Below are positions 17,477-40,744 of a stretch of DNA of 64,000 nt, one piece after another. A program made the position numbers and the translations under genes. How positions within the stretch are numbered: position 1 is the first letter of the stretch; each line of letters begins with the position of its first letter. Source of the stretch: a virus. Lineage: Duplodnaviria; Caudoviricetes. The notes below the pieces were generated by a model. That model did no database searches. It had not been told where the DNA came from and worked only from the letters and a program-made list of their open reading frames with translations. The DNA lies in IMG/VR virus record IMGVR_UViG_3300025640_001000; one strand, written 5' to 3'.

Positions 17477-18352
17477 GTGGAGATTGTTGATAAAAAGAAA
17501 GATAGAGTATTTGTTTTAGCCTGTGGAAAGTCGTGTGATTTAGTAAACTATTTAGACTTTTTACGTGGCGAATATGTAATCGCAGTATCACGTTGGTTAT
17601 TTTTCGATGGATATAAATTTGACTTTTATTTTGTAAACGATTCTGGTTTATTAATTAAATCTGCTAATCTTCACGGAGGTTTGTCGCAACTTAAAACATT
17701 TTGTAGTGGCAATAGTGCAAAATGGTTCAGAGATTCAGTAAAGGATAAAAATATAGAGTCGGCATTCGGACTCCAGATGGGCAATTATACATATAGAACT
17801 AATGGAATTGTAAAGTGTAGAACGAAACCAAATACAGAACCTTGGCAACTAAATGATGAAGAATTTCTAAATTCAAACGGAACGATGTCAGTTGAAAATC
17901 CATATGATCATTTTTCTCATGCAAATTTTTCTCAATATAAAATCAAAGGAACTGGATGTGGAACGGCAACTAGATGTGCAGTTGATTTGGCATATTTTCT
18001 TAAATTTAAAACTTGTTATTTAATGAACGTAGATACATTTCCGATTGAAGGAGCAGGGTACAGTAAACATATCTTAAAATATGCAGTTCCAGAAGCAAGA
18101 AGAACCACTCCATATATTAGAAATGGTTTTTTTGATGTAAGAACCTGGGGACATCGTTATACTCAATATAAAGGTATGAATTTACGAAGAGTTGTACCTG
18201 AGAATATGCTATCTCAAGAACTTGAAATCGCAAAGACTTCAAAAAAAGTGGCAAAAAATGTGGGAATGTTTAAAACTGTGTTGTATGAGAATTTGATAAA
18301 TGAAAATGAAACGGTTGAAGATTGTGTAACATATAACCACTATGTGGTCTAA
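17477..18352 (+). CDS. Maf/DUF115-like putative nonulosonic acid transferase (paralog of the previous gene)
   Basis: Co-linear similarity to 16592..17449 over the full length. Confidence 0.6.
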   Translation: MEIVDKKKDRVFVLACGKSCDLVNYLDFLRGEYVIAVSRWLFFDGYKFDFYFVNDSGLLIKSANLHGGLSQLKTFCSGNSAKWFRDSVKDKNIESAFGLQMGNYTYRTNGIVKCRTKPNTEPWQLNDEEFLNSNGTMSVENPYDHFSHANFSQYKIKGTGCGTATRCAVDLAYFLKFKTCYLMNVDTFPIEGAGYSKHILKYAVPEARRTTPYIRNGFFDVRTWGHRYTQYKGMNLRRVVPENMLSQELEIAKTSKKVAKNVGMFKTVLYENLINENETVEDCVTYNHYVV

Positions 18353-18383
18353 GAACATAATATATATTATATTTATAAAAACT

Positions 18384-19205
18384 ATGGGAGATGTAAAAAT
18401 TATTGCCGAGATCGGTATCAATCATAATGGTGATATAAACATTGCTAAAAAATTGATAGACGTTGCATCCGTTGCAGGATGCAACTATGTAAAATTTCAG
18501 AAAAGGACACCTGAGTTGTGTGTACCAGAAGAGCAGAAAAACAAAATGCGTGAAACTCCCTGGGGTAAAATTACCTATCTTGAATACAAAGAAAAAACTG
18601 AGTTTGGTAAAAAGGAATACGATGAAATAGCAAAATACTGCGAAGACCGTGATATAAAGTGGTTTGCGAGTGTGTGGGATACTGAATCAGTTGATTTCAT
18701 GAAAAACTACGTAGACATTACAAAAGTTCCGTCTGCGTTAATTACAAACGAAGAGTTGCTTAAATCAGCAAGGAACTCGGTTGGTTATTTTATGTTTTCA
18801 ACCGGTATGAGTACAGAAGAAGAAATTGACAAAGCAATAGAAATAGGAAATCCTGATTTGATTTTTCATACCAACGCAACTTATCCTTGTCCTGTTGATG
18901 AACTGAATATGAACTATATTGATTGGTTGAAAAGAAAGCACCCAACGAAAGAAATCGGATACAGTGGACATGAATTTGGATTAGTTCCTACTTTCGTAGC
19001 AGTTTCTATGGGAGTAACGTGGGTGGAACGACACATCACTTTAGACAGAACGATGTGGGGTTCTGACCACATGGCATCAATTGAACCAGGGGGTGTTATT
19101 AAAATGACTAAAGCAATTCGTGATATTGAAAAAACATTCGGAGAAAGTGGTCCTAGAAAAGTTCTTGGTGGTGAGTTAGAAAAACGAAAAAGTTTAAGGG
19201 GGTAA
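18384..19205 (+). CDS. neuB: N-acylneuraminate (nonulosonate) synthase family protein, short form lacking SAF domain
   Basis: AEIGINHNG, VKFQKR, IGYSGHE, ERHITLDR..GSDH. Confidence 0.92.
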   Translation: MGDVKIIAEIGINHNGDINIAKKLIDVASVAGCNYVKFQKRTPELCVPEEQKNKMRETPWGKITYLEYKEKTEFGKKEYDEIAKYCEDRDIKWFASVWDTESVDFMKNYVDITKVPSALITNEELLKSARNSVGYFMFSTGMSTEEEIDKAIEIGNPDLIFHTNATYPCPVDELNMNYIDWLKRKHPTKEIGYSGHEFGLVPTFVAVSMGVTWVERHITLDRTMWGSDHMASIEPGGVIKMTKAIRDIEKTFGESGPRKVLGGELEKRKSLRG

Positions 19206-19210
19206 CTGAT

Positions 19211-19858
19211 ATGGAAACTGAAAGATTTATAGAGATTAGAGGAAATAAGTTTATTTTAGACGATGAATACTTAGAATGGCATCGTAAAAACCTATATGAG
19301 TATACTCCAAAATCAAATACATTTTGCTTTCGGTGGATAAATAGACCACATAAATTTGAGATAGAAGAGCATACTCTTGTTGAAAAACATTTGCGTAGAG
19401 ACTCAAACGTGATTGATCTTGGGGGTTTTATTGGTACACTTTCATGTGCGATAAATAAGAGTTTAAAAAATCCTAATAATCATGTAGTCACGGAAATTCA
19501 TCCATTTTACACAAGATATCTACAGAAAAACAGAGATATAAATAACTGTAAATTTGAAATATTAAACAGAGTGGATAAACTAGAAGAATTAAATGTAGAT
19601 TATTTTTTTGATACAATAATTGCAGACATAGAAGGAGATGAGTTTAGATTTATACTAGATAATTTTGACTATATATCAACCCATGTTGAGTTGATAATAG
19701 TTGAGGTGCATAAACGGTATTGTGCATTACCAAGTCAACCTGAAAAAAGTAATAAAACTGTACCGATAAACTTAAGAAGACAATGTCTGGCTACACTCGA
19801 TACAAAATTTAAAAAAGTAGACTTTTTTAAGAATACATTAGTATACAGGAGAAAATAA
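19211..19858 (+). CDS. FkbM-like SAM methyltransferase
   Basis: VIDLGGFIG, IADIEGDE, IIVEVH. Confidence 0.75.
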   Translation: METERFIEIRGNKFILDDEYLEWHRKNLYEYTPKSNTFCFRWINRPHKFEIEEHTLVEKHLRRDSNVIDLGGFIGTLSCAINKSLKNPNNHVVTEIHPFYTRYLQKNRDINNCKFEILNRVDKLEELNVDYFFDTIIADIEGDEFRFILDNFDYISTHVELIIVEVHKRYCALPSQPEKSNKTVPINLRRQCLATLDTKFKKVDFFKNTLVYRRK

Positions 19859-20443
19859 ATGAAATATAAAAAATTATATGACGAATTATATGAAAATGGG
19901 TATCATTCTAATTTTAAAACAAACCACACAAAACATTTGTATGCCTATGTTGATAAATTTATCGGTCCGGCCGGCAAAGTTTTGGATGTAGGATGTTCAC
20001 ATGGAACGGCAGTTTACCATCTTAATAAACGTGGATACGACTCGCATGGAATAGACATTTCATCCGTTGCCATAGAATTGTGCAATAAACGCAAAATTAA
20101 AAATTGTAAAGTAAGTTCTGTTGCAAATATAGATTATGATGATCAGTACTTTGACGGTCTAGTATCGTCTGATACATTTGAACATCTAGACCCATCTGAA
20201 ATTGAATCGGCATTACTAGAATGCAACCGAGTTCTAAAAAAGGGAGGAGTTGGAATTATGCTAATTGCCACACGAAAGGAGGTGAACCGACATTATGATT
20301 TCGTTGCAAAAAAATATGGATTAACTAATTTGCATACATCTATCTTTAATGCAGAAGATTGGACAAATAAAATAAAATCAGTATTTCCTTTTCTTGAGGT
20401 AATAGTCAAAAAACGAGGAGCTATTTTCATTTTTAAAAAATGA
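19859..20443 (+). CDS. Class I SAM-dependent methyltransferase
   Basis: VLDVGCSHG, GIDIS, FEHL, RVLKKGG. Confidence 0.88.
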   Translation: MKYKKLYDELYENGYHSNFKTNHTKHLYAYVDKFIGPAGKVLDVGCSHGTAVYHLNKRGYDSHGIDISSVAIELCNKRKIKNCKVSSVANIDYDDQYFDGLVSSDTFEHLDPSEIESALLECNRVLKKGGVGIMLIATRKEVNRHYDFVAKKYGLTNLHTSIFNAEDWTNKIKSVFPFLEVIVKKRGAIFIFKK

Positions 20444-21075
20444 AAACAATATCTCTGATTCTTGCCCGTGGTGGTAGTAAAGGTATTCCAAATAAAAACA
20501 TAATTGATTTAAATGGAAATCCGTTACTTTATTACACGACAAATGCTTCATTAAATTCTAATGTTAATGAGACATGGGTAAGCACAGATTGTGATAAAAT
20601 AAAAAAAATTGCACAGAATATCGGTTGTAAAGTTATTGATCGTCCAAAAGAAATTTCTGGTGACAATAGCAAAAGTGATGAAGCACTTGTTCATTTTGCT
20701 GAAAATGTAGATTTTGATATTTTGGTATTTATACAACCAACATCTCCTTTACTTAAATCGTCTGACATAAACAAGGGACTAAAGAAGATGCAAAACTATG
20801 ATTCAGTCTTTAGTGTAACAAAAGAGCATTGGATTCCAAGGTGGAATGAAAATGGTGAACCTGTCAACTGGAATATCAACGATAGGCCTATGCGACAAGA
20901 TGTAAAAGAAACTTATATTGAAAATGGTGCATTTTACATTACAACTAAAAAGCAATTGTTGAATTCAAAATTAAGATACGGTGGAAACATCGGAATGGTT
21001 GAAATGCCATTACACAGAAGTTTTCAAATTGATACGATGGATGATTTAAAATTAATTGGAAAATTATTAAAGTGA
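20440..21075 (+). CDS. neuA: Acylneuraminate cytidylyltransferase
   Basis: LARGGSKGIPNKN, VSTD, QPTSP, ENGAFY, QIDT. Confidence 0.93.
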   Translation: MKTISLILARGGSKGIPNKNIIDLNGNPLLYYTTNASLNSNVNETWVSTDCDKIKKIAQNIGCKVIDRPKEISGDNSKSDEALVHFAENVDFDILVFIQPTSPLLKSSDINKGLKKMQNYDSVFSVTKEHWIPRWNENGEPVNWNINDRPMRQDVKETYIENGAFYITTKKQLLNSKLRYGGNIGMVEMPLHRSFQIDTMDDLKLIGKLLK

Positions 21076-27095: not shown

Positions 27096-28118
27096 ATGAA
27101 TAAAAATAATAGGTTGCTCAAGTATTCTGATATAATACTAGTTCCTAAATTAAGCAATATAGAAACTCGCAATGCAGTTGATGTAAGTTGTAAATTCGGA
27201 AATCAATCATTTAATTTACCGGTTGTTCCTGCGAACATGAAAACCGTAATCAATGAAGAACTTGCAAAGATGTTGTCGGATGCAAATTTCTTTTATATTA
27301 TGCATCGGTTTGGTATAAGCAATTACGAGTTTGTAAACACGACAAATAAACAAAATCTCAAATGCATTTCAATTAGTGTGGGTGTAAAGCAAAGTGACAT
27401 TGAGTGTTTGCAGAAAATTGCAGAAGATAATCTTCGTGTTGATTATATTACCATTGATATTGCACACGGTCATAGTGTTTTAATGAAAAACACGATCAAT
27501 GAAATCAAAAAGATTTTCGGTGATAAAACATTTATCATTGCAGGAAATGTAGCAACATCTGATGCAGTAAGTGAAATTACTCAATGGGGAGCAGACGCAA
27601 TTAAGGTTGGTATAGGGCAGGGAAGTCCATGTACAACCAAAGACAAAACAGGATTCACGATGCCAATGTTCAGTTGTATGTTAGAATGTGCCAAAAATGC
27701 TGATATACCATTGATCGCAGATGGTGGTGTTAAATGCAACGGAGACGTTGCAAAAGCAATATGTGCAGGTGCAGACATGGTCATGGTCGGTGGAATGTTT
27801 GCTGAATGCGTTGATTCTCCGGCAGAAAACATCACCAAAACTTTACACACAGGATTTTTCACAAGTGAACCATTTCGACCAACCAACTATAAACCTGAAT
27901 ATAAAGATGTTTGCTATAAACGATATTACGGAAGTGCAAGTCAGTTTAACAAAGGTCATACAAAAAACATAGAAGGAGTTATGCGTGAAGTACCTTGCAA
28001 CGAACTAAGTTATCTTGAAAAGATGGACGAAATGACGATGGACTTACAAAGTAGTGTAAGTTATGCCGGAGGAACAAATTTGAATTGTTTGTCAACTACG
28101 GAATATTTATTGGTATGA
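27096..28118 (+). CDS. guaC: GMP reductase
   Basis: PVVPANM, DIAHGHS, AGNV, KVGIGQGSPCTTKDKTG, IADGG, YYGSAS, SSVSYAG; no CBS domain. Confidence 0.9.
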   Translation: MNKNNRLLKYSDIILVPKLSNIETRNAVDVSCKFGNQSFNLPVVPANMKTVINEELAKMLSDANFFYIMHRFGISNYEFVNTTNKQNLKCISISVGVKQSDIECLQKIAEDNLRVDYITIDIAHGHSVLMKNTINEIKKIFGDKTFIIAGNVATSDAVSEITQWGADAIKVGIGQGSPCTTKDKTGFTMPMFSCMLECAKNADIPLIADGGVKCNGDVAKAICAGADMVMVGGMFAECVDSPAENITKTLHTGFFTSEPFRPTNYKPEYKDVCYKRYYGSASQFNKGHTKNIEGVMREVPCNELSYLEKMDEMTMDLQSSVSYAGGTNLNCLSTTEYLLV

Positions 28119-28333
28119 CATCTGAGCAAAGATATAATTTAGACAAAAAAATGTCAGAGTTTGAATCTTTTGTGGAATTTCATGCATATGCATATGCAAA
28201 TAATATTATATTTGACAATGAAGAGTGGGAAGAGTATAGTAATAAAATGAAAAAATTGTTGCGTGAAAAGAAAAATGCACCAATATATATTGATACCACA
28301 GGATTAATTTTACCAAATATACATAAGGAATAA
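28115..28333 (+). CDS. Hypothetical protein
   Basis: ATGA overlap; TATTTAT at 28104. Confidence 0.5.
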   Translation: MTSEQRYNLDKKMSEFESFVEFHAYAYANNIIFDNEEWEEYSNKMKKLLREKKNAPIYIDTTGLILPNIHKE

Positions 28334-28335
28334 AA

Positions 28336-28605
28336 ATGAGCGAAGAAAATGATTTTACTGTAACCGTTGACGGAGCAGAATATAAGTTTAATGACTTGAG
28401 TGATGAAAACAAGTCGTTGGTTGGCCACATTCGTGACCTCGACTCCCAAGTTGAACAACTTAATTTCCGTTACGAGCAACTTAGTGCATCAAAGAGTTTT
28501 TTCTCGGACAAACTTGTTCAGTCGTTGAAGGCACCTGCCGAAGACGCACCACAAGAAGCAGAAGCAGTTCCACAAGAAGCACCTGCTCAAACCGAGTCTG
28601 CATAA
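28336..28605 (+). CDS. Small coiled-coil phage protein
   Basis: VTVDGAEYKFNDLSDE plus coiled coil and acidic tail. Confidence 0.65.
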   Translation: MSEENDFTVTVDGAEYKFNDLSDENKSLVGHIRDLDSQVEQLNFRYEQLSASKSFFSDKLVQSLKAPAEDAPQEAEAVPQEAPAQTESA

Positions 28606-28641
28606 ACGTAGATATTTAGATTTCACCGATATTTATTATTG

Positions 28642-29289
28642 GTGGAAAATCTAGTTTGTATTTATACCTGCGAATCACACGCAGAGCAATTGAATTTGCT
28701 CAAGAACTCGCCGTTGTACGATGATCTAACAAATTCCAATCATCGTATAATAGAAGTTCGTTCCGGTGGAACACACACCGAGTTTTTGGGTGGAAACCTC
28801 ATATGCAAAGGAACAGAGTCGTATGATGCTCTTTCAATTAAAACATACGAAATGATTGATTATTGTTTTAAAAACTTTGAGTATGATCATTTAATTAAAA
28901 TAGATTGCACTCTTGCGTTTGATGAAGAAAACGAACCAGAGAAGTGGAAACGACAATTCACGACAACCGAGGTAAGCAACTTCGTAAACAAATCTTCTTA
29001 TTTGGATTATGACGGAATTCAATCTCAGTGTGCAACTATGTTATCATTCAGACGTTGGGCAATACGCAAAAACATAAAAACCGAGTCAGTTGCCAATTTG
29101 ATTGGTAACAACACCGCAAATAGATTTTACACAGGCAAGTGTTATTCCATTTCAAGAAACTTTTCCAAGTTTGTTTCTATTAACTGCAAAAACGTGGCAT
29201 ATTCATTTGCCAAGAGGTATGGAGGGATAGAAGATTTATTTATTGGAAAAAGTTATTATAATTTTAGAGTTTTGGACGAGGTACGATGA
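28642..29289 (+). CDS. GT31/galactosyltransferase-like protein
   Basis: ESYDALSIKT, HLIKID, GKCYSIS, EDLFIG. Confidence 0.65.
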   Translation: MENLVCIYTCESHAEQLNLLKNSPLYDDLTNSNHRIIEVRSGGTHTEFLGGNLICKGTESYDALSIKTYEMIDYCFKNFEYDHLIKIDCTLAFDEENEPEKWKRQFTTTEVSNFVNKSSYLDYDGIQSQCATMLSFRRWAIRKNIKTESVANLIGNNTANRFYTGKCYSISRNFSKFVSINCKNVAYSFAKRYGGIEDLFIGKSYYNFRVLDEVR

Positions 29290-30122
29290 GTTTGATATAT
29301 TTGATAAACCTTGATTGCGTGGCAGACAGAGTGCCAGAATTTTCTTCGCAGTTGGATATACACAGAATATCTGCAATAGATACGAGAAGTAGAACAAACG
29401 AGCATACGAAATTTGGATTATCTTTAAATCCACCTGATAAAATATCAAAGTTATACTTTTCATTGTACGCAGGTGCACTTGGTTGTTATTTAAGTCACTA
29501 TATATTTTGGAAGAAAGTGATTGAGGGTAAAAATAATTATGCTCTTGTTCTTGAAGATGATGCTGATCCGAATGATGTGGAACGATTGATTGCATCTGAT
29601 ACTCTTGAAAAACATTTAAACAACAACAAACCGACATTATTGCAGTTAAACAAACGAACCACTTACGACAAACTACCATTTTGGTTTGACGGAACAGAAA
29701 GTTATGCGGTTAACAAAGCAGGAGCAAAATCATTACTTGATTTAACATATGACTTTTCTTGCTTTGAAAATACTTTTATTGAATATGCGTGGGACTGGCC
29801 AGAACTCAAAGGAGGAAAGCAACAATTATTTACAGAGTGGGCAGACCACGATGCAAATATAAATTATACACAAAAAAATACGATTCGTTATGCAGTTGAT
29901 AAATTTATCGGATATTGTGGCATGGATAATGTTCCTACGGAAAAACGATTGAATATAATAATAGAAAATAAAGTAGGAATCAACGAAAAATACAAAAATC
30001 AATCAGATATACTAAATCAACGAAAATTAACATGGCAAATGTCACTACAAGAATTAAAAAAATGCGAGACTGACGATAATTATATGTGGTGGAGTAAGCA
30101 TGAAAACAATTTCAATCAATAA
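29286..30122 (+). CDS. Glycosyltransferase family 25
   Basis: YLINLD, GCYLSH, LVLEDDA, GTESYAV. Confidence 0.85.
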   Translation: MSLIYLINLDCVADRVPEFSSQLDIHRISAIDTRSRTNEHTKFGLSLNPPDKISKLYFSLYAGALGCYLSHYIFWKKVIEGKNNYALVLEDDADPNDVERLIASDTLEKHLNNNKPTLLQLNKRTTYDKLPFWFDGTESYAVNKAGAKSLLDLTYDFSCFENTFIEYAWDWPELKGGKQQLFTEWADHDANINYTQKNTIRYAVDKFIGYCGMDNVPTEKRLNIIIENKVGINEKYKNQSDILNQRKLTWQMSLQELKKCETDDNYMWWSKHENNFNQ

Positions 30123-30936
30123 AACATTTGTAGTTAATTTAGATGATAAAATTCATCGTTACGATTTATTTCGTAATTTACCGAATGTAGAAAGACAACG
30201 TGCGGTGGATTCACGAATTAATTGGTTTGTTTACGAAGATTACAAACTTTCATTGAATCCATGTGGACGAAACACTATTCAATATTTTACGCAATCAAAA
30301 GGAGCAGTTGGGTGTTATCTTAGTCATTATGAAATATGGAGCAAGGTATTAGCAAATAATTACGAGTGGACGTTAATTCTTGAAGATGATGCGAGCATTC
30401 ACGATGCCGAAAGATATGTTTGTAATTATATTGAAATTGAAGATGATGTTGATTTAATTCAATTTAACGATAGAACTCAGCATGGTGATTTGCAAAATTA
30501 TTTTAATGGCACAACTGCATATTTACTGAACCAACGAGCAGCTAAAATTTTATTTGATTCAACACATGAGTTTTCACATTTTAACGAAAATCCAAGTGAA
30601 CTTCTTGAATGGAGAATAAACAAGCACAATTTATATACTTGCTCTTACATTTATGATAATGAAACGAGAACCGAGTGTCTGAAAATACCAAATTCAATAC
30701 GAGTCGCAGTTGATAAACACATTGGATACAATTCGTTTTACTCACTTCCGTCTGACAAAAAAATAAAAATAAAGTTTGATCCAAGAATTAAAATATATGA
30801 AACTAACATCAAGTCGGATGTAACTGGAAACGAAAAACCATTTTATGAAATGAATTGCGAAGAACTTGCTCAGTTAGAAAACAGAAAAGATTTTAAGTGG
30901 TGGGAAAAACCAAATGAATTTAAAAAGAGCATTTAA
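30100..30936 (+). CDS. Glycosyltransferase family 25 (paralog)
   Basis: VVNLD, GCYLSH, LILEDDA, GTTAYLL. Confidence 0.85.
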   Translation: MKTISINKTFVVNLDDKIHRYDLFRNLPNVERQRAVDSRINWFVYEDYKLSLNPCGRNTIQYFTQSKGAVGCYLSHYEIWSKVLANNYEWTLILEDDASIHDAERYVCNYIEIEDDVDLIQFNDRTQHGDLQNYFNGTTAYLLNQRAAKILFDSTHEFSHFNENPSELLEWRINKHNLYTCSYIYDNETRTECLKIPNSIRVAVDKHIGYNSFYSLPSDKKIKIKFDPRIKIYETNIKSDVTGNEKPFYEMNCEELAQLENRKDFKWWEKPNEFKKSI

Positions 30937-31921
30937 AAACGAACCATCCGATAATTCTATTGTATTGATATGTGTTCTGAGGGACGAAATATTATTACTT
31001 CCTTATTTCATTGAGTATTATACGAAAATGGGAGTTTCACATTTTATATTCGTAGATAACGATTCAATAGACGATTCACAAAAGTATTTGTGCGAACATC
31101 CGTTTGAAAATATAAAAGTTTATCACACCGATGAAGAGTATTCAAAAAATTTATATGGTGTATCTTGGGTAAACGAAATTTTAAATGTTCAACTCAAAAA
31201 CAAATGGTGTATAGTAGTTGACGTAGATGAATTGATTCAACCCAAAGATAAAATCAACCTCTCACACCTCAGAGCAAATATGCAAAATTCAAATGCAAAT
31301 ATTTTAGTTACCTGCTTATTGGACTTTTATCCATCTAAATTAAATGAGAAAATATACGAATCAGGAACTCCGTTTCAAGAGCATTCAGATATGTTTGATA
31401 AAATGAATGATGACAATGTTTTTTATGCAATTCAAAATGATGGAGTTGTAACTATAAAAGGAGGACTGCGTCATAGATTGCTTAATTCACACAATAAACC
31501 AAGCAATAATTCGGTGTGTTTAACGAAAAAAACTTTTTTTAAATACGATTTTTATGAAACTCATCATTTATCCGAAGGATGTCATTGGTTGATGCCAAAC
31601 AATTTTATAGATTGGTTACATCCTGATAACAACAAACTTTGGAAATCAACAAACAAATTTTTAAGGTTTTATGAAAATTTGCAAATTCTTGGTCATTTTA
31701 AATACCTCAAACCAAACGTGTTTGAATATTTTGAAGAAAGAGTGAACCGCAATCAAGATTGGGACGGTGGAATCAGAGTCACATCTGGATCAATTGAGTA
31801 CCAGACATATATTGAAAATAAGTCGGAAAAAATGGAAGACGTCACCACCAGTGAAATGTATAACCACAACCATGATGATTTATACGAAAAAACTTTGAAT
31901 AACGTTCTGAAAAAATTATAA
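30914..31921 (+). CDS. Glycosyltransferase family 2 (Glyco_tranf_2_4-like)
   Basis: LRDE..LPYFIEYY..GV..FIFVDNDSID; WCIVVDVDE; HFKY. Confidence 0.85.
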   Translation: MNLKRAFKNEPSDNSIVLICVLRDEILLLPYFIEYYTKMGVSHFIFVDNDSIDDSQKYLCEHPFENIKVYHTDEEYSKNLYGVSWVNEILNVQLKNKWCIVVDVDELIQPKDKINLSHLRANMQNSNANILVTCLLDFYPSKLNEKIYESGTPFQEHSDMFDKMNDDNVFYAIQNDGVVTIKGGLRHRLLNSHNKPSNNSVCLTKKTFFKYDFYETHHLSEGCHWLMPNNFIDWLHPDNNKLWKSTNKFLRFYENLQILGHFKYLKPNVFEYFEERVNRNQDWDGGIRVTSGSIEYQTYIENKSEKMEDVTTSEMYNHNHDDLYEKTLNNVLKKL

Positions 31922-31978
31922 AAACAAAACAAACAACATATTTATAGTAAAACCTTTATTAACAACGGGAGAAAAAAA

Positions 31979-33787
31979 ATGAGTAGCATTCAAGAAAAAG
32001 GAGATTTAAGTGGCGATAATAAATTGTCAGGTAAAGATATAGACATCAATTGGGCATACCTTCAAACAAAATTACTTGCAGAATCCGAGTGGTCGGAAAA
32101 TATAGCAAAATCAAACGAAACTGATAAATGCAATGACAATCCTGCAAAATGCTCACCAGTTGATGCTCAAGGCAATGTTACTCAGGCAGTAAATAAATGT
32201 GGAGATCCTGCAAACTGGAGGTTAAATGACACATATACAGGTAATGGTTCGAACGAATGCCCACCGTGTTGTCAATATCTTCCTACAAATTTCATTGAAA
32301 AAATGCTCGATTTGTATGAAGCAAATCAGGGTGCGGGTATTGCAGAAACCAACACTGAATTTGGTCCTACTGTTGAAGACAATGTTGCCGATCTCCCTGG
32401 TACACTTGAACTTGGTTCTCCACTTGGAAAACCTCAAGTAAATCTTTTAAAAAGGTGGACATTAGACGATCAACCAAACTCTTCATCTGACAACGGTGCT
32501 ACCAGCAAAGCAGTGGAATCATTTTCAGGTGACTTGAGTGCAACTTTGAATGACGCGTGGTGGAGGGCAAAAACTACTGCAACGGATATGTTGCAACTCG
32601 GGTCAACAGCTAGTGTAGAATTTGACACAGGTGGTGCTTTAAGCAACGAAGGAAACTGGACTATACATTTTAAAGCTATTCCAAACTGGGGATCGAGTGG
32701 GAGCAATCAAATCCTTTCCATTGGAAACATGACCCTCTCAACTGGAAAAAAACTTTTGACTCTAAGAGAAGCAAATAACCGACCATATTATTTTGTATTT
32801 CCTAATGAAGTAGAAAAATCTACATATAATAATCAGCTTATTGATTTTTATTTTCAAAGAGTTACACAGGGTGTTAAAATGTTTATAGATACTGGTACGG
32901 GACCTAAATTATGTCCACAATCTGTTGTAGGTGTGATTCCTGTGATAATAGAAGACAACGATTCTCCTTTAATTATATACGGTACTGGTGTTAAGCACTT
33001 GAAAGATCTTTGGATTGCTGATGGTTCATTGAGTTCAACACAAATCACTAAAATGACTCAAGATAGGTTTGATGTATATAGAGCAAAAAATGATTTAAAT
33101 GTTAGTGAAGCATTTATCGGATTTTTGGATCAAACTAACGATATATACGGAAACTGGTTAAGAATTTTCCGAACCAATGACTCGGCTTTATGGAAAGGTC
33201 AACGACCAGACTTGTGGCAAACACCACCAGCTGGTTCGGCAAATGGATTTTCAACAAACAATAGAAATCATTGCTTGAAGTTAGGAGCCGATACTCGTAA
33301 CATGAAATTGGAAAATATAAATTTTAAAGGTAATTTTACCGTAGGGGCATGGATTAGAACTGGTAAGGTAGATGAACCTTTTATTAAATTTCAGGATATG
33401 TCAGACACGAAATCATTTGGTATCCAGGTGAATGGTGCTAAAACAAAACTGCAAACTAAAGCAACGGGATTATCTATGGCTTGGCCAGGACCTATAAATC
33501 ATGATTTTTCCACAATGGAAACTGACTGGTTTCATATTGTTATTGTCAAAAATCGTAATACAATTGGATTTTGGATAAACGGAGCAACGGGTGACGATAT
33601 GCACGTTACACTTTCTGATGCTGATATAAATGCACTTGGAAATACTAGATTTTGTTTTTTCGGAAGTACATCAAATCCGGTTTATATAGCAGATGTTCGT
33701 GCTTATCATTATGCATTAAGTCATGTTCCTGCAAATGGATTTGGACCAAGAAGTTCGTGGCCATTCATAGATGATATAAAAGCATAA
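31979..33787 (+). CDS. Putative virion protein: dockerin-like loop, Cys-rich segment, LamG-like domains
   Basis: GDLSGDNKLSGKD; six Cys; FTVGAWIR, WFHIVIV, FWING, IADVRAY. Confidence 0.65.
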   Translation: MSSIQEKGDLSGDNKLSGKDIDINWAYLQTKLLAESEWSENIAKSNETDKCNDNPAKCSPVDAQGNVTQAVNKCGDPANWRLNDTYTGNGSNECPPCCQYLPTNFIEKMLDLYEANQGAGIAETNTEFGPTVEDNVADLPGTLELGSPLGKPQVNLLKRWTLDDQPNSSSDNGATSKAVESFSGDLSATLNDAWWRAKTTATDMLQLGSTASVEFDTGGALSNEGNWTIHFKAIPNWGSSGSNQILSIGNMTLSTGKKLLTLREANNRPYYFVFPNEVEKSTYNNQLIDFYFQRVTQGVKMFIDTGTGPKLCPQSVVGVIPVIIEDNDSPLIIYGTGVKHLKDLWIADGSLSSTQITKMTQDRFDVYRAKNDLNVSEAFIGFLDQTNDIYGNWLRIFRTNDSALWKGQRPDLWQTPPAGSANGFSTNNRNHCLKLGADTRNMKLENINFKGNFTVGAWIRTGKVDEPFIKFQDMSDTKSFGIQVNGAKTKLQTKATGLSMAWPGPINHDFSTMETDWFHIVIVKNRNTIGFWINGATGDDMHVTLSDADINALGNTRFCFFGSTSNPVYIADVRAYHYALSHVPANGFGPRSSWPFIDDIKA

Positions 33788-33794
33788 TTTTACA

Positions 33795-34394
33795 ATGATA
33801 AACGATAAGCATAAGTTTATCTTTGTAAGAGTTACTAAAACTGCATCAACTTCTATAACTGATTGTTTAGAAAAAAGTGTAAAATTGGACTCATATAAAT
33901 GGTCAGTTGTCCAACTAGAAATAAAAGAAAAATGGCAGGATGACGAGAATCATATTCCGATGTGGTTCATAGAAGAAAATATTTCTGATAAAAAGTTTAA
34001 ATCTTACTTTAAATTTTCGTTTGTAAGAAATCCATTTGACAAGTTAGTATCAGCATATGGGTATGATATAAATTGGCATTGCAAGAATAAAATAAAAAAT
34101 GATAATTTAGATACCTTTGCTAGATATATTAAAAGTGGTTTTGGGACACGATTGAAAAACTCATCACAGTATGATTTTACATATGGATGTGATTTCATCG
34201 GAAGATTTGAAAACCTTCAAGAAGACATCAATGTTGTCTGCGACAAAATTAAAATTCCACAACAACAACTTCCACATAAAAACAAATCAAAACACAAATC
34301 TTACAGTGAATACTACGATGACGAAACAAAGCAAATTGTTGCGGAAAAATTCGCAAAAGACATTGAGTATTTCGGTTATGAATTTGGAGAATAG
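33795..34394 (+). CDS. Sulfotransferase (Sulfotransfer_2 family)
   Basis: RVTKTASTS; FVRNPFDKLVS; IGRFENL; FGYEFGE end. Confidence 0.88.
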   Translation: MINDKHKFIFVRVTKTASTSITDCLEKSVKLDSYKWSVVQLEIKEKWQDDENHIPMWFIEENISDKKFKSYFKFSFVRNPFDKLVSAYGYDINWHCKNKIKNDNLDTFARYIKSGFGTRLKNSSQYDFTYGCDFIGRFENLQEDINVVCDKIKIPQQQLPHKNKSKHKSYSEYYDDETKQIVAEKFAKDIEYFGYEFGE

Positions 34395-34396
34395 GA

Positions 34397-34999
34397 ATGA
34401 AAAAATATACAATTACAAAATCGAAAGAAAGCAAGTATGTTTGGTTTCAAATAGCAAAAAATGCGTCGCGTACGACTGTCAATTATTTAAATGAAAACAC
34501 AAAGGTAGACTTTGGATTTCCACTCTACCTTAACAAAGATGCTGGATATCAAAAACCATATGAAAGTGAATATGATGACTATTTTAAATTTACAATAGTT
34601 AGAAATCCGTGGGATAGAATTTTAAGTTTTTATTTAAATAAAATACATGGCAAAGATGTGTACACAGAAAATTATTCCAGTTTTTCTGAATGTAAAACAC
34701 TTAGAGATACTATTTCAATATTAATGACAAAAAATCTTAAAGATTGTGATGTTCATTATCAACTACAAATCGAATGCTTTCCATCTGATAATATTGACTT
34801 TATAGGTCGTTTCGAAAACCTCCAACACGACTTCAATATAATCTGCGACAAAATCGGAATTCCACGACAACAACTTCCACACAAAAACAAAACAAAACAC
34901 AAACACTACACAGAATATTACGATGATGAAACTCGTCAAATTGTTGCAGAAAGATATGCACAGGACATTGAGTATTTCGGATATAAATTTGGAGAGTGA
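34397..34999 (+). CDS. Sulfotransferase (Sulfotransfer_2 family)
   Basis: IAKNASRT; IVRNPWDRILS; FGYKFGE end. Confidence 0.88.
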   Translation: MKKYTITKSKESKYVWFQIAKNASRTTVNYLNENTKVDFGFPLYLNKDAGYQKPYESEYDDYFKFTIVRNPWDRILSFYLNKIHGKDVYTENYSSFSECKTLRDTISILMTKNLKDCDVHYQLQIECFPSDNIDFIGRFENLQHDFNIICDKIGIPRQQLPHKNKTKHKHYTEYYDDETRQIVAERYAQDIEYFGYKFGE

Positions 35000-35002
35000 G
35001 GG

Positions 35003-35596
35003 ATGATTATATCTAAAAAACATAATTTTATTTATATTGCAGTTTCTAAAACAGGATCGACGTCGATACATAAAGCATTTTCAAATTTAGATGATGAAAC
35101 ACTTTTTATTGAAAAAGAAAATGAAGATAATAAAGATAGAGTTAATAAATTTATATATAAACATATTAAAGCAACTGACTTAAAAAAACAAATTGAAAAC
35201 TATGATGAACATTTTAAGTTTTCTTTCGTTAGAAATCCATATGATAGAGCTGTGTCTTGGGTTTACTATTATTATAGAAACAGAAAGATTAATTTAGATG
35301 AACACTCCTTTAAAGAATTAATTTTTAAATTCCCAGACTGGATATGGACCGGCCAACATGAGTTTCTATTTGAAGATAATAAAAATTCAATGAATTTTGT
35401 AGGTAAAGTTGAAAACTTCCAACAAGACTTCAACATAATCTGCGACAAAATTGGAATTCCAAAACAAGAACTTCCACACAAAAACAAAACAAAACATAAA
35501 CACTACACCGAATACTACGATAAAGAAACAAAACAAATTGTTGCAGAAAAATACAGGAAAGACATTGAGTATTTCGGATATGAATTTGGAGAATAA
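35003..35596 (+). CDS. Sulfotransferase (Sulfotransfer_2 family)
   Basis: AVSKTGSTS; FVRNPYDRAVS; FGYEFGE end. Confidence 0.88.
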   Translation: MIISKKHNFIYIAVSKTGSTSIHKAFSNLDDETLFIEKENEDNKDRVNKFIYKHIKATDLKKQIENYDEHFKFSFVRNPYDRAVSWVYYYYRNRKINLDEHSFKELIFKFPDWIWTGQHEFLFEDNKNSMNFVGKVENFQQDFNIICDKIGIPKQELPHKNKTKHKHYTEYYDKETKQIVAEKYRKDIEYFGYEFGE

Positions 35597-35599
35597 ACC

Positions 35600-36259
35600 G
35601 TGAATATATTTGAAGAAATGATTAATAAAACTGGAAAATCTAAAGATTTTTTTTTCATTCAGATAGGATCAAATGATGGAGTTCGAAACGATCCGTTATA
35701 CAAGTTTATCTGTAAATTTAATTGGTCTGGTATCTGTGTAGAACCTGTTCCTTATTTATATAATAAATTGCAAAAACTTCATGTGATGCGTAAAAATATT
35801 AGTTGCAGGAATGTTGCAGTTTCCTCCACTGGTGGTAATATGACTTTTTATTATATTAAAGAAAACCAACACGACCAAACAGACTGGGCGAGTGGTAACG
35901 GCCTGGGTTCTTTTAATAAAGAAATAGTAATGAAACATCAAAACGGAGTGTATGACTTTGATGATAATTTTTCTAAGATGGAGGTTAAGACGATTACATT
36001 TAGTGACTTAACTAGTGGTGTACCTAAAATTGATTTACTTCATATTGATGCAGAGGGGTATGATTTTGAAATAATTAAAACAATAGATTTTACTAAAACA
36101 ATACCTTCATTTATTTTGTTTGAACATAAGTGGTTAGATGATAAAAATGAAGTTTATGAATTTTTAAAAGAACATAAATATAAATGCTTAGACTTAAACA
36201 ATAAGTCGGATACACTTGCAATACACGAAGATTGCAAGCTTGCAGAGTACAATCGATGA
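35600..36259 (+). CDS. FkbM family methyltransferase
   Basis: QIGSNDG, VEP, IDLLHIDAEGYD, FEH. Confidence 0.88.
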   Translation: MNIFEEMINKTGKSKDFFFIQIGSNDGVRNDPLYKFICKFNWSGICVEPVPYLYNKLQKLHVMRKNISCRNVAVSSTGGNMTFYYIKENQHDQTDWASGNGLGSFNKEIVMKHQNGVYDFDDNFSKMEVKTITFSDLTSGVPKIDLLHIDAEGYDFEIIKTIDFTKTIPSFILFEHKWLDDKNEVYEFLKEHKYKCLDLNNKSDTLAIHEDCKLAEYNR

Positions 36260-36969
36260 AAAAGGCAATTTACCAACTTACTATAAAACCATTAGAGTTT
36301 ACTGACATACGAAATAAAAAACAGGAATTCGAAGTAACCCGATGTATACCTACTGTGGTCGAGTATGCAAAAAATGTAAATGCAGATTATATAATGTTAA
36401 ACGAGGATAATCTACCGAGTTGGGTTCTAAATGAAATTATAAAAAAAGATGGTAGTTATGTAAGAGCATTGATTGCCAAATGTTTGTTATTTAAGGTATG
36501 GGCATCAACTGAATATGATCAAATTTTGTTTTTAGATAATGATATCCAAGTAATTGGAGAACGTGACATATTTAATGAAAATTTTGACATAGCAACTCGT
36601 CACTATGAAAAAATTAGACAAGACCGTGCGACTAAATACTTTGGTCGTCCAATGACCCCGTGTAATACCGCGGTCATGGTAATGAATAAAGAATATATTA
36701 AAAAGTTATCAAAAATAAAATTTAATTGGGAAGAGATGTTGAAAAAATGCCATGAATATAAAGGTAAAGTTGGCGAACGATACTTTAGTGGATATTTAGG
36801 TGAGTTTTTTTATATGCATTGTCTAGATGAATTAAAAACTAAACCAGTGGATTTATCTGTTGATAAATGGACTAAAGATTATATAGGATATAAATACAAT
36901 CCGAATTTCTTCAAAGATATTTCAGAATATAATTTTATTCACTGGGTTGGCACAGAATATTTAAAATAA
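36256..36969 (+). CDS. GT-A glycosyltransferase (GT8/GT34-like)
   Basis: YAKNVNADY, YDQILFLDNDI, NTAVMV, FIHWVG. Confidence 0.7.
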   Translation: MKKAIYQLTIKPLEFTDIRNKKQEFEVTRCIPTVVEYAKNVNADYIMLNEDNLPSWVLNEIIKKDGSYVRALIAKCLLFKVWASTEYDQILFLDNDIQVIGERDIFNENFDIATRHYEKIRQDRATKYFGRPMTPCNTAVMVMNKEYIKKLSKIKFNWEEMLKKCHEYKGKVGERYFSGYLGEFFYMHCLDELKTKPVDLSVDKWTKDYIGYKYNPNFFKDISEYNFIHWVGTEYLK

Positions 36970-36979
36970 TATATGGTAA

Positions 36980-37003
36980 TTCGGATATGAGTTCGGAAAG
37001 TAA
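36980..37003 (+). pseudogene. Orphan remnant of a sulfotransferase 3' end (FGYEFGK*)
   Basis: TTCGGATATGAGTTCGGAAAGTAA matches the paralog ends but has an in-frame stop immediately upstream. Confidence 0.7.
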
Positions 37004-37019
37004 GTTTTTATAAAAACTC
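37001..37019 (+). repeat. 19-nt direct repeat, copy 1, containing perfect palindrome AGTTTTTATAAAAACT
   Basis: TAAGTTTTTATAAAAACTC identical to 38988..39006. Confidence 0.85.
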
Positions 37020-37043
37020 GTATATACCATACTTATTATAATC

Positions 37044-37169
37044 ATGGAAACGATATTATTCATATTATTGGGAATGTTTATTGGTTGGAATTTCCCACAA
37101 CCTGCATATGCGAAATTTATTCAGAACAAGGTTCTTGATTTCGTAAGAAAACTTGTAAGCAAAAAGTAA
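37044..37169 (+). CDS. Small membrane protein, 41 aa (not in ORF track)
   Basis: METILFILLGMFIGWNFPQPAYAK...; TACTTAT 7 nt upstream. Confidence 0.7.
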   Translation: METILFILLGMFIGWNFPQPAYAKFIQNKVLDFVRKLVSKK

Positions 37170-37199
37170 TCTAATTTAAAAATTTTAGGAGAGATTGAT

Positions 37200-37310
37200 A
37201 TGGATATTATATTATTGTATATCGTTGTGGGTATGTTTGCGGAACACTTTCTTGGTATCGCAGGTAAAATTACAGAAGTAACTTACAACTACATCAAAAG
37301 AAAATTATAA
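37200..37310 (+). CDS. Small membrane protein, 36 aa (not in ORF track)
   Basis: MDIILLYIVVGMFAEHFLG...; AGGAGA SD upstream. Confidence 0.65.
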   Translation: MDIILLYIVVGMFAEHFLGIAGKITEVTYNYIKRKL

Positions 37311-37317
37311 AAACCAC

Positions 37318-37349
37318 TTGACATTTTCAGAACAATATACTATATTTAT
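37318..37349 (+). promoter_or_regulatory. Overlapping sigma70-type promoter and TATTTAT motif upstream of tmRNA
   Basis: TTGACA-N17-TATATT overlapped by TATTTAT. Confidence 0.65.
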
Positions 37350-37384
37350 ATTCTTACTTGTTCATTGATAGTCAAATTTCTGTT

Positions 37385-37793
37385 GGGGGTATTCTGGATT
37401 CGATTTGTATTTAGATATCCAAACTGCACGTGAAGGATAATACACGGCCTTCTCAAAATGTATTAAATTGTTTAAATGGCGAAGATACATTCGTTGCAGA
37501 CCTTCTCGCAGACGCAGAAGCAGAATTCTCTGCTTTAGAAGAAGCGGAAGCTGTGTTGGTGGCATAAATAAGCCCACCCCGTCACCCAAATGATCACACG
37601 ACTAGTTTGGTGTTGGCGTCAACAATCGTGGAACCAGAGATTGTTTTTTCGTTGGAAACTCTGTATAACAATAAAACGAATAGAAAAGGTAGACTTGTTT
37701 GTTGGGTAACTTTTTGAAATTTACGACAAAATAAACGTGTAGACGTTTGGAAAGAAGAATAGAAAGACGCGGGTTCGACTCCCGCTACCTCCA
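37385..37793 (+). ncRNA. ssrA: tmRNA, tag (A)GEDTFVADLLADAEAEFSALEEAEAVLVA
   Basis: 5' GGGGGTA pairs with 3' TACCTCC (G3:U wobble, A discriminator, CCA not encoded); GGATTCGA; T-arm GCGGG-TTCGACT-CCCGC; PK1 GAAGG/CCTTC and TAATACA/TGTATTA; TAAAT-GGC resume context at 37478. Confidence 0.95.
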
Positions 37794-37898
37794 GAAGTCT
37801 TTTAATTTAATATTGGAAGATTACTGAAGGTAGTTGAAAAACTACTTCCAACAGAGATTTGATTTGACAAATTATAAAAACTATCATATTTATATTGT

Positions 37899-38990
37899 AT
37901 GAGAATTGGTGTACCGAAAGAAATTAAAAAACACGAATATCGTGTGGGTCTTACACCCAGTGCAGTTAGCAAGTATGTTGCAGAAGGGCATCAACTTTTT
38001 GTGGAATCAAGTGCCGGACTAGGAACAGGATTCACAGACGATGATTATATTCAAGCAGGTGCTAGTATTTGTAATGTTAAAGATACATTCGGCAACGCAG
38101 ATATGATTATCAAAGTAAAAGAACCACAAATTTCAGAGTTACCAAATTTCCGCCGAGACCAAATACTTTTTACTTATCTGCATTTAGCTGCTGACAAAAA
38201 ATTAACCGAAGAACTGATAAACATTGGATTAACTTCAATTGCATACGAAACAATTCAGTTGCCAAATCATAGTCATCCTTGTCTTACTCCAATGAGTGAG
38301 ATTGCAGGTCGTTTAAGTGTCCAAGAAGGTGCTAAATACTTGGAAACACCCTTCGGAGGAGCAGGTATCCTTCTTGGTGGTATACCCGGTGTTAAACGAG
38401 GCAAGGTGGTCATTTTAGGAGGAGGTGTTGTTGGATTCAATGCAGCTAAAATTGCACAAGGAATTGGAGCATACACAAGTATACTTGATATATCACAAGA
38501 ACGACTTGCATATCTCGATGATGTATTTGGTTCGTCAGTTCAAACGTTGTTCAGTAACGATGCAAACATTGAATCGGAAATAGCAGATGCAGACGTTGTA
38601 ATCGGAAGTGTTTATGTTCACGGAGCATCTGCACCAAAACTAATTCGCAAGCATCATTTAAAAAGCATGAAGAAAGGTGCGGTGTTGGTTGACGTGGCAA
38701 TTGATCAAGGTGGATGCTTTGAAACAAGCAAAGCAACAACACACGATAAACCCATTTATGATGTTGATGGAATTGTTCATTACTGCGTAGCAAATATGCC
38801 AGGTGTAGTTCCACAAACAAGCACGGTTGCATTAAACAACCAAACACTTCGTTATGGTCTTGAAATTGCAAGTGGGATTTCACCCGACAAATACAATGAT
38901 GCTTTGAAATTGGGTGTTAATACACACGATGGTAAATTAATTTGCGAAGCAGTTGCGAATACGCACAATCTTCCTTTTTCTGCAATTTAA
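37899..38990 (+). CDS. ald: Alanine dehydrogenase
   Basis: IGVPKEIK..EYRV, KVKEP, FTYLHLA, PMSEIAGR, GGGVVG, DVAIDQGGC, YCVANMPG. Confidence 0.96.
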   Translation: MRIGVPKEIKKHEYRVGLTPSAVSKYVAEGHQLFVESSAGLGTGFTDDDYIQAGASICNVKDTFGNADMIIKVKEPQISELPNFRRDQILFTYLHLAADKKLTEELINIGLTSIAYETIQLPNHSHPCLTPMSEIAGRLSVQEGAKYLETPFGGAGILLGGIPGVKRGKVVILGGGVVGFNAAKIAQGIGAYTSILDISQERLAYLDDVFGSSVQTLFSNDANIESEIADADVVIGSVYVHGASAPKLIRKHHLKSMKKGAVLVDVAIDQGGCFETSKATTHDKPIYDVDGIVHYCVANMPGVVPQTSTVALNNQTLRYGLEIASGISPDKYNDALKLGVNTHDGKLICEAVANTHNLPFSAI

Positions 38991-39006
38991 GTTTTTATAA
39001 AAACTC
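38988..39006 (+). repeat. 19-nt direct repeat, copy 2
   Basis: TAAGTTTTTATAAAAACTC, begins at the ald stop codon. Confidence 0.85.
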
Positions 39007-39061
39007 TCCCTTCTCCATATTTATAGTTGGAGATTTTGTGATTTATTGTAAGGGAGAGTTG

Positions 39062-39295
39062 ATGATGGAATATGAAGTAATTGATACTTTTGGTAATCGA
39101 GTTATTGGTGTATACGAAACGAGGGATGCCGCGATATATGCAATTAGATTGTATTGTGTACAAAAGATGATGAACAAGGTGAGTTTGTTTGACCAAGACT
39201 TTGTGAATCTTGTTGAAAACGGAACTGAGATAACATATGAAAACCCACTTGGTTATTTCCCCACAAAACCAAAGTTTTTATTAAACGAAGTATGA
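39062..39295 (+). CDS. Hypothetical protein
   Basis: GGGAG SD, ATGA overlap with next gene. Confidence 0.55.
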   Translation: MMEYEVIDTFGNRVIGVYETRDAAIYAIRLYCVQKMMNKVSLFDQDFVNLVENGTEITYENPLGYFPTKPKFLLNEV

Positions 39296-39855
39296 TAAGT
39301 CATACCCACAATTTTATTTTTATTCACATTCCCAAAACAGGAGGATCTTCAGTTGATGATGTATTGAAGAAGTATGTAAGGCGATGGGTTCTGCATGAAT
39401 ATGTATATCCAGATGCAGTACATAAAGCAGAAAAACGCAACGGATTCAAAAACTATTTTTCGTTTTGCTTTGTTAGAAATCCGTGGGATAAAATAGTTTC
39501 TCAGTATCATTTTAATCGGGATAAGTTCGGCATGACGGATTATACGTTTGACGAATATGTTCATGCGTTCAATGAAGGCAAAAGAATTTCTTGGTTTAAT
39601 CCGGACTTTTTGTCATGGATGACTGACGATGACGGTAATATGCTTATGGACTTTGTAGGAAGGTTTGAAAAATTGCAGGAAGATTTTGATTATGTATGTG
39701 ACCAAATTAAAATTCCAAAACAAGAACTTCCACATCACGTTAAAACTGAAAACAGAACACATTATACAGAATACTATAACGAAGAAACAAAGCAAATAAT
39801 TGCGGAAAAATACATGAACGACATCGAGTATTTCGGGTATGAATTTGGAATCTGA
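39292..39855 (+). CDS. Sulfotransferase (Sulfotransfer_2 family)
   Basis: HIPKTGGSS; FVRNPWDKIVS; FGYEFGI end. Confidence 0.9.
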   Translation: MISHTHNFIFIHIPKTGGSSVDDVLKKYVRRWVLHEYVYPDAVHKAEKRNGFKNYFSFCFVRNPWDKIVSQYHFNRDKFGMTDYTFDEYVHAFNEGKRISWFNPDFLSWMTDDDGNMLMDFVGRFEKLQEDFDYVCDQIKIPKQELPHHVKTENRTHYTEYYNEETKQIIAEKYMNDIEYFGYEFGI

Positions 39856-39856
39856 T

Positions 39857-40744
39857 ATGATCACTCATAGTATGGCATATACATTGCACACATTTGGGTC
39901 ATTTCATAAGATATATTTCTCGGTTTGGTTTGCAGATGATGATACCGATTTACCAATGCATATCAAAACTATATTAAAATGGAATGCCAAGTGCTTGATA
40001 AAATTTAACATTCCTCTTGTAGTTTTATATACAGGAACAAAAGTTGGAAATACATTAAACAAACTACATAAAAATGTTTTGAGTATCAATGCTACATCTT
40101 ATATGAAAAATGAGTTGTCGGTTGCATTAACAAACACTTACACAAACGAACGAACTACTCCAGACGAATTTGAGATAATGTGCTATCAACGATTTATAGT
40201 TGCATCTCACATATTTAAAAAAACAAACACTCAATTAACTCATCTTGATTGTGACTTTATGATCACACGTGATTTGTTGCATGAGGTAGAATCAACATCA
40301 ATGAGTTGTGATATTAAATCATTCGGCACAGGATGTACTCCGTGTGTTTGGTTCAATGGAGTTCAGCAACTTGAAAACTTTTGCAATTACTTTTCAGAAA
40401 GTCCACAAAAATGTGACATGATTGCTTTGCAAAAATACATTGAAGAAATTCCTGTGCATTTTGAAAAAATTTTGTTGCATGAGCAGTTTCGTAAGTATTT
40501 AAAAAATAACGCATTTCCATCTTATTCAATTCGTGCTAAAATCGGAAAAATATGTAAATTATACAACATTGACATTCCTTCGGATAAAACAGACAAACAT
40601 TTTTTAAAACAGATATCAAATTTTTTTGAGTTTGATAAGTTTTCTATTCGGATGAATGAAGAGAGTGTTCCATTTATTCACTTTCAGGGTTGGTCACGTG
40701 GACTTGCAAAATATATTTTTAAACATTCTCCGTTGACATTGTAA
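39857..40744 (+). CDS. Putative glycosyltransferase
   Basis: CYQRF, HLDCD (DxD), CDM, IHFQG. Confidence 0.55.
   Translation: MITHSMAYTLHTFGSFHKIYFSVWFADDDTDLPMHIKTILKWNAKCLIKFNIPLVVLYTGTKVGNTLNKLHKNVLSINATSYMKNELSVALTNTYTNERTTPDEFEIMCYQRFIVASHIFKKTNTQLTHLDCDFMITRDLLHEVESTSMSCDIKSFGTGCTPCVWFNGVQQLENFCNYFSESPQKCDMIALQKYIEEIPVHFEKILLHEQFRKYLKNNAFPSYSIRAKIGKICKLYNIDIPSDKTDKHFLKQISNFFEFDKFSIRMNEESVPFIHFQGWSRGLAKYIFKHSPLTL

Follow-up and report, generated by a model that had tools for sequence, protein, structure and literature searches.

Phage genomes are mosaic in general, and repeated constant segments that border variable segments are known from pilE/pilS, vlsE, shufflons and integrons. In T4-type phages, the short conserved PeSL repeats of the hyperplastic region allow general recombination to insert, delete and replace non-essential neighbouring genes between close relatives, without a dedicated recombinase (Arbiol et al., 2010, PMC2839356; Comeau et al., 2014, PMC4122927). 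In the T4-superfamily gp38 adhesins and tail-fibre genes, conserved segments are reported to flank variable specificity segments, with discordant histories of adjacent parts of one gene (PMC3157838). Here, we analyzed a stretch of 64,000 nucleotides from the IMG/VR virus record IMGVR_UViG_3300025640_001000 (Duplodnaviria; Caudoviricetes), hereafter the window. It carries an array of four sulfotransferase genes, S1 to S4 (Table 1), whose 3' ends (tails) are nearly constant and whose 5' parts (heads) are variable. A preliminary description had proposed that homologous recombination in these tails shuffles the heads, and any genes lying between tails, as cassettes. Our results partly support this reading. 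Tails and heads have different histories and several rearrangements end at tails, and nothing shows an evolved shuffling system.

PeSL shuffling is the closest mechanism, since in both cases repeats are substrates of general recombination and genes turn over between relatives. However, PeSL repeats are intergenic promoter-terminator/stem-loop cassettes, whereas here the repeated element is coding sequence, the 3' third of the genes of an enzyme family, in which no conserved RNA structure was found. An exchange in this array must keep a working protein and can make head-tail chimeras. Mini-circles have been shown for PeSL. The gp38 adhesins and tail fibres are virion receptor-binding proteins with variable tips; the array is a tandem set of enzymes with a constant catalytic-core segment. 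With pilE/pilS, vlsE, shufflons and integrons it has in common constant repeats next to variable segments. Unlike these programmed systems, it has no silent donors, inverted repeats or attC-like sites, no recombinase was found among the island open reading frames (ORFs) scanned with Pfam, and high-frequency switching was not seen.

The tail comprises the 67 codons at the 3' end of S1 to S4 and is nearly constant, in the protein alignment, from DFIGRFENLQ to the stop. The heads had been said to share only motifs for the sulfate donor 3'-phosphoadenosine 5'-phosphosulfate (PAPS), and indeed the alignment shows only two phosphate-binding blocks in common, a K-T-G-S-T-S-like loop and an F-V-R-N-P-x-D-R-x-x-S block. 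In sliding windows of 15 codons, DNA identity rises sharply from 26-70% in the heads to 73-93% in the tails of S1-S3 and 58-91% in that of S4. Over the whole tail, identity is 80-84% among S1-S3 and 68-75% between S4 and these three, which agrees with the closer similarity already reported for the former. The tail sequences quoted at that time are real repeats: GACATTGAGTATTTCGG has three exact copies and, in S4, a further copy with a single mismatch, and TCTGCGACAAAAT has three copies, while shuffled sequences give an expectation of 0 for both. A repeat search returned direct-repeat families of 3-4 copies spaced by 605 and 597 nt. Exact matches between the tails of the window measure 17-28 nt, with 24 nt shared by S3 and S4. 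A family-wide survey covered 184 genes on about 80 viral contigs, in which the tail is the most conserved protein segment. These genes fall into 128 head families, 49 of which have tails of the S1-S3 type, and any one head can have different neighbours on different contigs.

The tails were also thought to be richer in C-ending codons. This holds for S1-S3, where 64-70% of NNY codons end in C in the tails versus 16-18% in the heads (p<0.001 each; window background 29%), and a share of 60% is reached by only 2 of the 608 67-codon windows in its ORFs. It does not hold for S4, where the difference is not significant (42% vs 26%). Selection of C-ending codons for translational optimality is unlikely, because the preferences depend on the site (some Asp sites have GAC, others GAT; likewise TAC versus TAT) and the codons for K, E and Q show no shift. 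GC-biased conversion is unsupported on the same site-specific grounds.

Where S1-S3 have the same amino acid, they use the same codon at 124/155 tail positions (0.80), against 0.56 expected from the codon usage of the window; in the heads the count is 47/79 (0.59), against 0.50 expected. Thus, the tails are not as diverged at synonymous sites as the heads. When amino acids encoded by four or six codons are compared among 12 related genes, the codons agree in 158/522 comparisons (0.30, the chance level) at conserved head columns and in 469/707 (0.66) in the tails. For S1-S3 and related tails, synonymous identity is 0.73-0.80, compared to 0.55-0.59 where head positions are conserved. Between orthologs (17 independent pairs), the heads have a synonymous identity of 0.825 and the tails one of 0.810, so that tails are not slower. 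Four of these pairs are individually discordant, in both directions, by our own Fisher estimates made by hand from the counts rather than by program output. Since the S1-S3 tails are less diverged synonymously than their heads while ortholog tails are not slower, tails and heads have different histories. On these codon counts, S1-S3-type tails have a more recent common ancestry than the heads that carry them.

A nucleotide-level function of the tail is unlikely, because ortholog tails are not slower, no RNA covariation was found in the tails (compensatory changes in 0/23 predicted pairs) and the antisense ORFs over the tails are a codon by-product. These ORFs lie on the minus strand at 34763-35080 (S2), 35387-35668 (S3) and 39613-39864 (S4). 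We rejected them as genes: the frame is broken in S1, the product is of low complexity, and elsewhere the frames remain open because TTA, CTA and TCA codons are avoided in the tails. One nucleotide constraint alone is evident, namely that the last tail codons contain the GGAG ribosome-binding site for the gene that follows.

Direct breakpoints were found at several places, and contig L091 provides the most direct evidence. It matches the window over 27622-34887 (7.3 kb) with a single difference. From 34888 on, inside the tail of S2, there are 38 differences up to 35022 and homology stops at 35027; the breakpoint is at about 34876-34888. Downstream, L091 replaces S3 and the genes that follow with a 196-amino-acid (aa) gene without clear family, an orphan half-tail and a different sulfotransferase. 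We read this as a crossover that took place recently, within the tail of S2, between genomes that are near-identical elsewhere. The content of the array differs among relatives, even between near-identical strains, and its order is not fixed.

A second breakpoint separates S2 from its ortholog in L088. Identity is 89.6% to the left of 34696 and 68.4% to the right (maximum chi-square, permutation p<=0.0005), with third-position differences at 15/99 and 39/102 sites, respectively. The informative sites of S2 change from L088-like to L089-like (triplet test p=3e-5). With this breakpoint and the one against L091, S2 is a recombinant gene.

Orphan pieces of tail give further end points. In L088, the S2 ortholog is the last gene of the array, and its tail end, FGYEFGK-stop, runs directly into a block containing a transfer-messenger RNA (tmRNA) and an alanine dehydrogenase gene. 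The window has an orphan tail end before the same block. At 25/27 positions it agrees with the intact end of the tail in L088, and homology continues into the conserved block; its left edge is non-homologous. A degenerate FGYEFG pattern has 4 matches versus 0 expected. By this alignment, the orphan is the remnant of an ancestral tail that once abutted the tmRNA block. Because it matches the terminal tail of L088, the window holds, between one tail end and another, genes of about 2 kb that this contig does not have, namely S3, an FkbM-type methyltransferase gene and a 245-aa ORF. In L078, an orphan half-tail comes after a Sulfotransfer_4 gene that is complete. Three independent junctions fall at one A-rich PHKNK-coding tract, namely the L091 crossover and the starts of the L091 and L078 orphan half-tails (alignment A6). 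This clustering was seen after the fact and is only suggestive of a junction hot spot. Differences between relatives therefore end at tails in L091 versus the window, at the orphan seen against L088 and at the L078 and L091 half-tails, as repeat-mediated shuffling would have it.

Tails have also been re-assorted onto heads. The tail of gene L078_a has 23-26 informative sites in common with that of its paralog L078_c and 8-11 with those of its head orthologs. These two genes of one genome carry the most similar tails found on different heads (89% DNA identity), with a synonymous identity of 0.86 in the tails and 0.39 in the heads. The tail of L080_a is 90.4% identical to that of S1 of the window versus 83% to its ortholog S3. 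Monophyly of four ortholog tails was marginally rejected by the approximately unbiased test (p=0.033).

We consider it probable that the array results from repeat-mediated modular evolution by general recombination, together with some illegitimate joins, and not from a programmed system. Protein function would hold the tail constant. A constant tail therefore would supply direct repeats usable for recombination, of about 200 bp, 80-90% identical and placed every 600 bp, and related phages would have the same sequence. Crossovers by general recombination, whether between co-infecting relatives or between the repeats, would fall in or next to the tails, preferably at the longest identical A-rich PHKNK-coding tract, and some junctions would form by microhomology or illegitimate joining. 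As an outcome, whole genes downstream of a tail would be inserted, deleted or replaced, tails would be re-assorted onto old heads and orphan tail pieces would be left behind. What the data establish is recombination as an evolutionary process, not as a programmed or high-frequency system.

Several points weigh against this explanation or limit the reading of the preliminary description. The breakpoint at 34696 lies in the head of S2, outside the tail, and several junctions are non-homologous. On these two counts the proposed swapping of modules and genes by recombination in tails is limited, while the L091 crossover and the orphan tails speak for it. L091 is a single 8.8-kb metagenomic contig, known from assembly alone. 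The arrangement of the window dominates the population, and L091 is the one minority variant contig that was found. The tail tree is an unresolved star. A test of the pairwise homoplasy index (PHI) type was significant only with codon characters in 12 genes (p=0.0005-0.02); it was not significant with third positions, nor on 57 tails, where homoplasy is near saturation. Among 16,613 tail pairs, 0 pairs at least 90% identical were found on different heads, and none was above 89%; most tail re-assortment is therefore old. The similarity of the S4 tail is essentially protein-level and older. Some site-specific codon preferences are also found in distant tails, and part of the codon similarity could be selected, as for the terminal GGA-GAA that forms the ribosome-binding site of the next gene. 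Finally, the biochemical roles given to head and tail are predictions.

Under functional constraint alone, the C-terminal module would be kept for catalysis or cofactor binding and no recombination would be involved. That the tail is the most conserved protein segment of the 184 genes agrees with this. So do the tails of S4 and of the more divergent family member S5, whose codon identity is at chance level despite a conserved protein (0.62 vs 0.56 expected and 0.48 vs 0.54, respectively), and the synonymous identity of 0.55-0.58, also chance level, of non-orthologous tails family-wide. For S1-S3, however, constraint alone is already contradicted by the codon counts, given the excess of synonymous identity in these and related tails over conserved head positions and ortholog tails that are not slower. 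Direct breakpoints and orphan tails also exist, and we find it improbable as a full account. Concerted evolution, in which gene conversion between paralogs of one genome homogenises the tails, would explain why the closest tail pair on different heads (L078_a and L078_c) belongs to one genome, and the 24-nt exact match of S3 and S4. It would not explain why the synonymous identity of tails is 0.72 for within-genome paralogs, which is not above the 0.74 of between-genome non-orthologs or the 0.76 of orthologs, nor why tail pairs of at least 80% DNA identity make up 6.1% of within-locus and 5.4% of between-locus pairs. No conversion patches were found when same-strain contigs were compared over the array. 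Conversion within genomes is, in our estimation, no likelier than constraint alone.

A programmed, high-frequency shuffling of cassettes, analogous to pilin/vls systems, shufflons or integrons, would diversify sulfation within the phage population. Direct repeats at regular spacing, the clustering of junctions at one tract and the strain-level variant L091 could all be expected from such a system. Yet every copy is a complete ORF with a start of its own, and no silent partial donors were found. A Pfam scan of 22 island ORFs, with several ORFs at 21.9-28.1 kb and small ORFs left unscanned, gave no recombinase, integrase or site-specific sites, and the scanned neighbours are transferases and methyltransferases. 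Direct repeats make inversion impossible, and exact matches between tails reach only 17-28 nt. Moreover, the 23 longest contigs with exact S1 or S3, from many samples, all have the arrangement of the window, at 99.92-99.98% identity. We judge programmed shuffling very improbable, and the least likely of the readings considered. Nothing here shows a 'system' of the kind suggested in the preliminary description. Nor is the tmRNA-alanine dehydrogenase block between S3 and S4 a cassette between tails: it is conserved backbone, 83-92.5% identical and syntenic in L081 and L088, and forms the right border of the variable array.

Repeat-mediated evolution may also have a stronger form, which we regard as doubtful. 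The tail would be maintained in part because it serves as a portable homology arm, with the A-rich PHKNK tract as its crossover hot spot. Huge marine phages could then trade sulfotransferase and other glycan-tailoring cassettes in frame at co-infection, possibly by way of excised tail-to-tail mini-circles. If true, a virion or host-surface glycan could have its sulfation pattern re-coded rapidly.

S1-S4 are predicted paralogous carbohydrate sulfotransferases of the PAPS type. All four passed the gathering score of Pfam Sulfotransfer_2 (PF03567) over nearly the full profile, with 55-74 bits against a cutoff of 22. They contain a 5'-phosphosulfate-binding loop and a 3'-phosphate-binding motif, and residues K16, R77, N78, P79 and S85, invariant across 45 homologs, are present in each. 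The AlphaFold2 model of S3 (predicted local distance difference test score 88) has the sulfotransferase alpha/beta fold. Almost all the matches listed by Foldseek, including all the top ones (3rnl, SULTs, NDST), are sulfotransferases, though with weak E-values (>=1e-3); a profile search by sequence against solved structures gave no match. In the model, the tail forms a core strand, the next helix, a basic loop and three helices, and would complete the PAPS donor-binding core. We infer that the variable N-terminal two-thirds, which hold the two phosphate-binding motifs and variable loops, make up the acceptor site, so that the heads may, as first proposed, set acceptor specificity. Compared to other Sulfotransfer_2 enzymes, such as the animal CHST/HNK-1ST type, the phage proteins have in common a Pfam match well over the cutoff, the phosphate-binding motifs and the sulfotransferase fold, but they are small, with 187-200 aa, look soluble and come from tandemly arrayed genes.

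Within the family, S2 has a variant loop, K-N-A-S-R-T. The S2 subfamily, with orthologs in L088 and L089, follows the pattern K-N/C-A-S/T-R-T and lacks a His that the other members keep nearly invariantly; its chemistry may differ, or it may be inactive. At 11282-12628 of L081, a 448-aa fusion combines a divergent sulfotransferase domain ending in DIEYFGYEF with a second in-frame domain homologous to a 216-aa Galactosyl_T-like ORF of the window (28639-29289).

The exact S1 and S3 proteins were found in many marine samples, on contigs of up to 492,783 bp. A nucleotide search of GenBank phages with the array region gave no match, and protein searches returned only distant cultured relatives, none of them close. 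Because of these large marine contigs and the absence of a close cultured phage, the best description of the source is an uncultured marine phage with a huge genome, of about 0.49 Mb. At about 34% GC, the window is AT-rich; it has nearly all its genes on the plus strand and encodes tail-fibre-like, helicase and Clp-type ATPase genes besides the tmRNA. The array belongs to a hypervariable island of glycan-tailoring genes that spans about 11 to 40.7 kb, with GT25, GT92-like and GT2-like transferases, LamG-domain proteins, methyltransferases, NeuB, a CMP-sugar cytidylyltransferase and six PF03567 sulfotransferases (S1-S6). A NeuB-family synthase, a methyltransferase and a CMP-sugar cytidylyltransferase are encoded together at 18342-21075, and the phage appears to make an activated nonulosonic acid from this part of the island. 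A collagen-like fibre gene lies at 3024-5096. For related operons, sulfation of collagen-like or tail-collar proteins has been predicted (Iyer et al., PMC2938197), and the function of phage sulfotransferases is still called unclear (PMC10580990).

Huge marine phages thus hold diverse sulfotransferase arrays, as illustrated by the 128 head families in about 80 contigs. New here are the synonymous sites that point to younger tails on older heads, a crossover within a tail at the strain level and, as a suggestion, the junction hot spot. A conserved catalytic segment of an enzyme family would double as a recombination substrate, and repeat-mediated shuffling, known from the hyperplastic regions of T4-type phages, would thereby extend to coding repeats. 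From the model, one expects junction reads at the PHKNK tract, and circles, in metagenomic reads. The head-tail chimeras that occur naturally in the array and its relatives could also serve to map acceptor specificity.

Table 1. Sulfotransferase genes of the window and features next to them.
Feature	Position	Strand	Evidence or remark
S1, PF03567 sulfotransferase, 199 aa	33795-34394	+	Pfam 70.7 bits; tail 34191-34394, nhmmer tail profile E 3e-59
S2, PF03567 sulfotransferase, 200 aa	34397-34999	+	Pfam 72.4 bits; tail 34796-34999
A/C-rich LPHKNKTK-coding tract	34872-34899	+	Longest exact inter-tail match, 28 nt, S2/S3
S3, PF03567 sulfotransferase, 197 aa	35003-35596	+	Tail 35393-35596; orthologs in L078, L080, L081 and L086
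FkbM-type methyltransferase	35600-36259	+	PF05050, 63 bits
245-aa ORF, no Pfam family	36232-36969	+	Pfam scan
Orphan sulfotransferase tail end, reads FGYEFGK-stop	36978-37003	+	Match to L088 tail end
Conserved backbone block: small ORFs, tmRNA (37385-37796), alanine dehydrogenase (37899-38990)	37004-38990	+	
S4, PF03567 sulfotransferase, 187 aa	39292-39855	+	Tail 39649-39855
S5 and S6, more divergent family members, same island	14147-14863, 14867-15643	+	hmmsearch E 2.6e-45, 4.3e-33

S3 is not part of the L088 or L091 arrangements. The methyltransferase gene and the 245-aa ORF that follow it belong, by synteny, to a variable segment of about 2 kb that is present in the window and not in these two contigs. 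S4 occupies a second variable slot, in which L081 has other genes. At 34385-34399, 34990-35005 and 35587-35602, the last tail codons (TTT GGA GAR) provide the GGAG ribosome-binding site 8-10 nt before the next start. The genes of the array are probably translationally coupled, and this coupling may be a reason why orphan tail ends stay.

The tmRNA of the backbone block is genuine (Rfam, 122.8 bits) and lies directly upstream of the alanine dehydrogenase gene. Over the region of that gene, window 37842-39034 and L081 13446-14633 are 92.5% identical, compared to about 80% for the flanking genes, which suggests either a stronger constraint or a more recent exchange. L085, a contig of the same species, differs from the window solely by nine changes, mostly three bases apart, at 38576-38612 in the alanine dehydrogenase gene, and this stretch looks like a short recombination patch. 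The tmRNA-alanine dehydrogenase block is bracketed by the perfect palindrome GTTTTTATAAAAAC, present at 37004-37017, after the stop of the orphan tail, and at 38991-39004, after the stop of alanine dehydrogenase; with at most one mismatch, it has 4 matches versus 0.07 expected.

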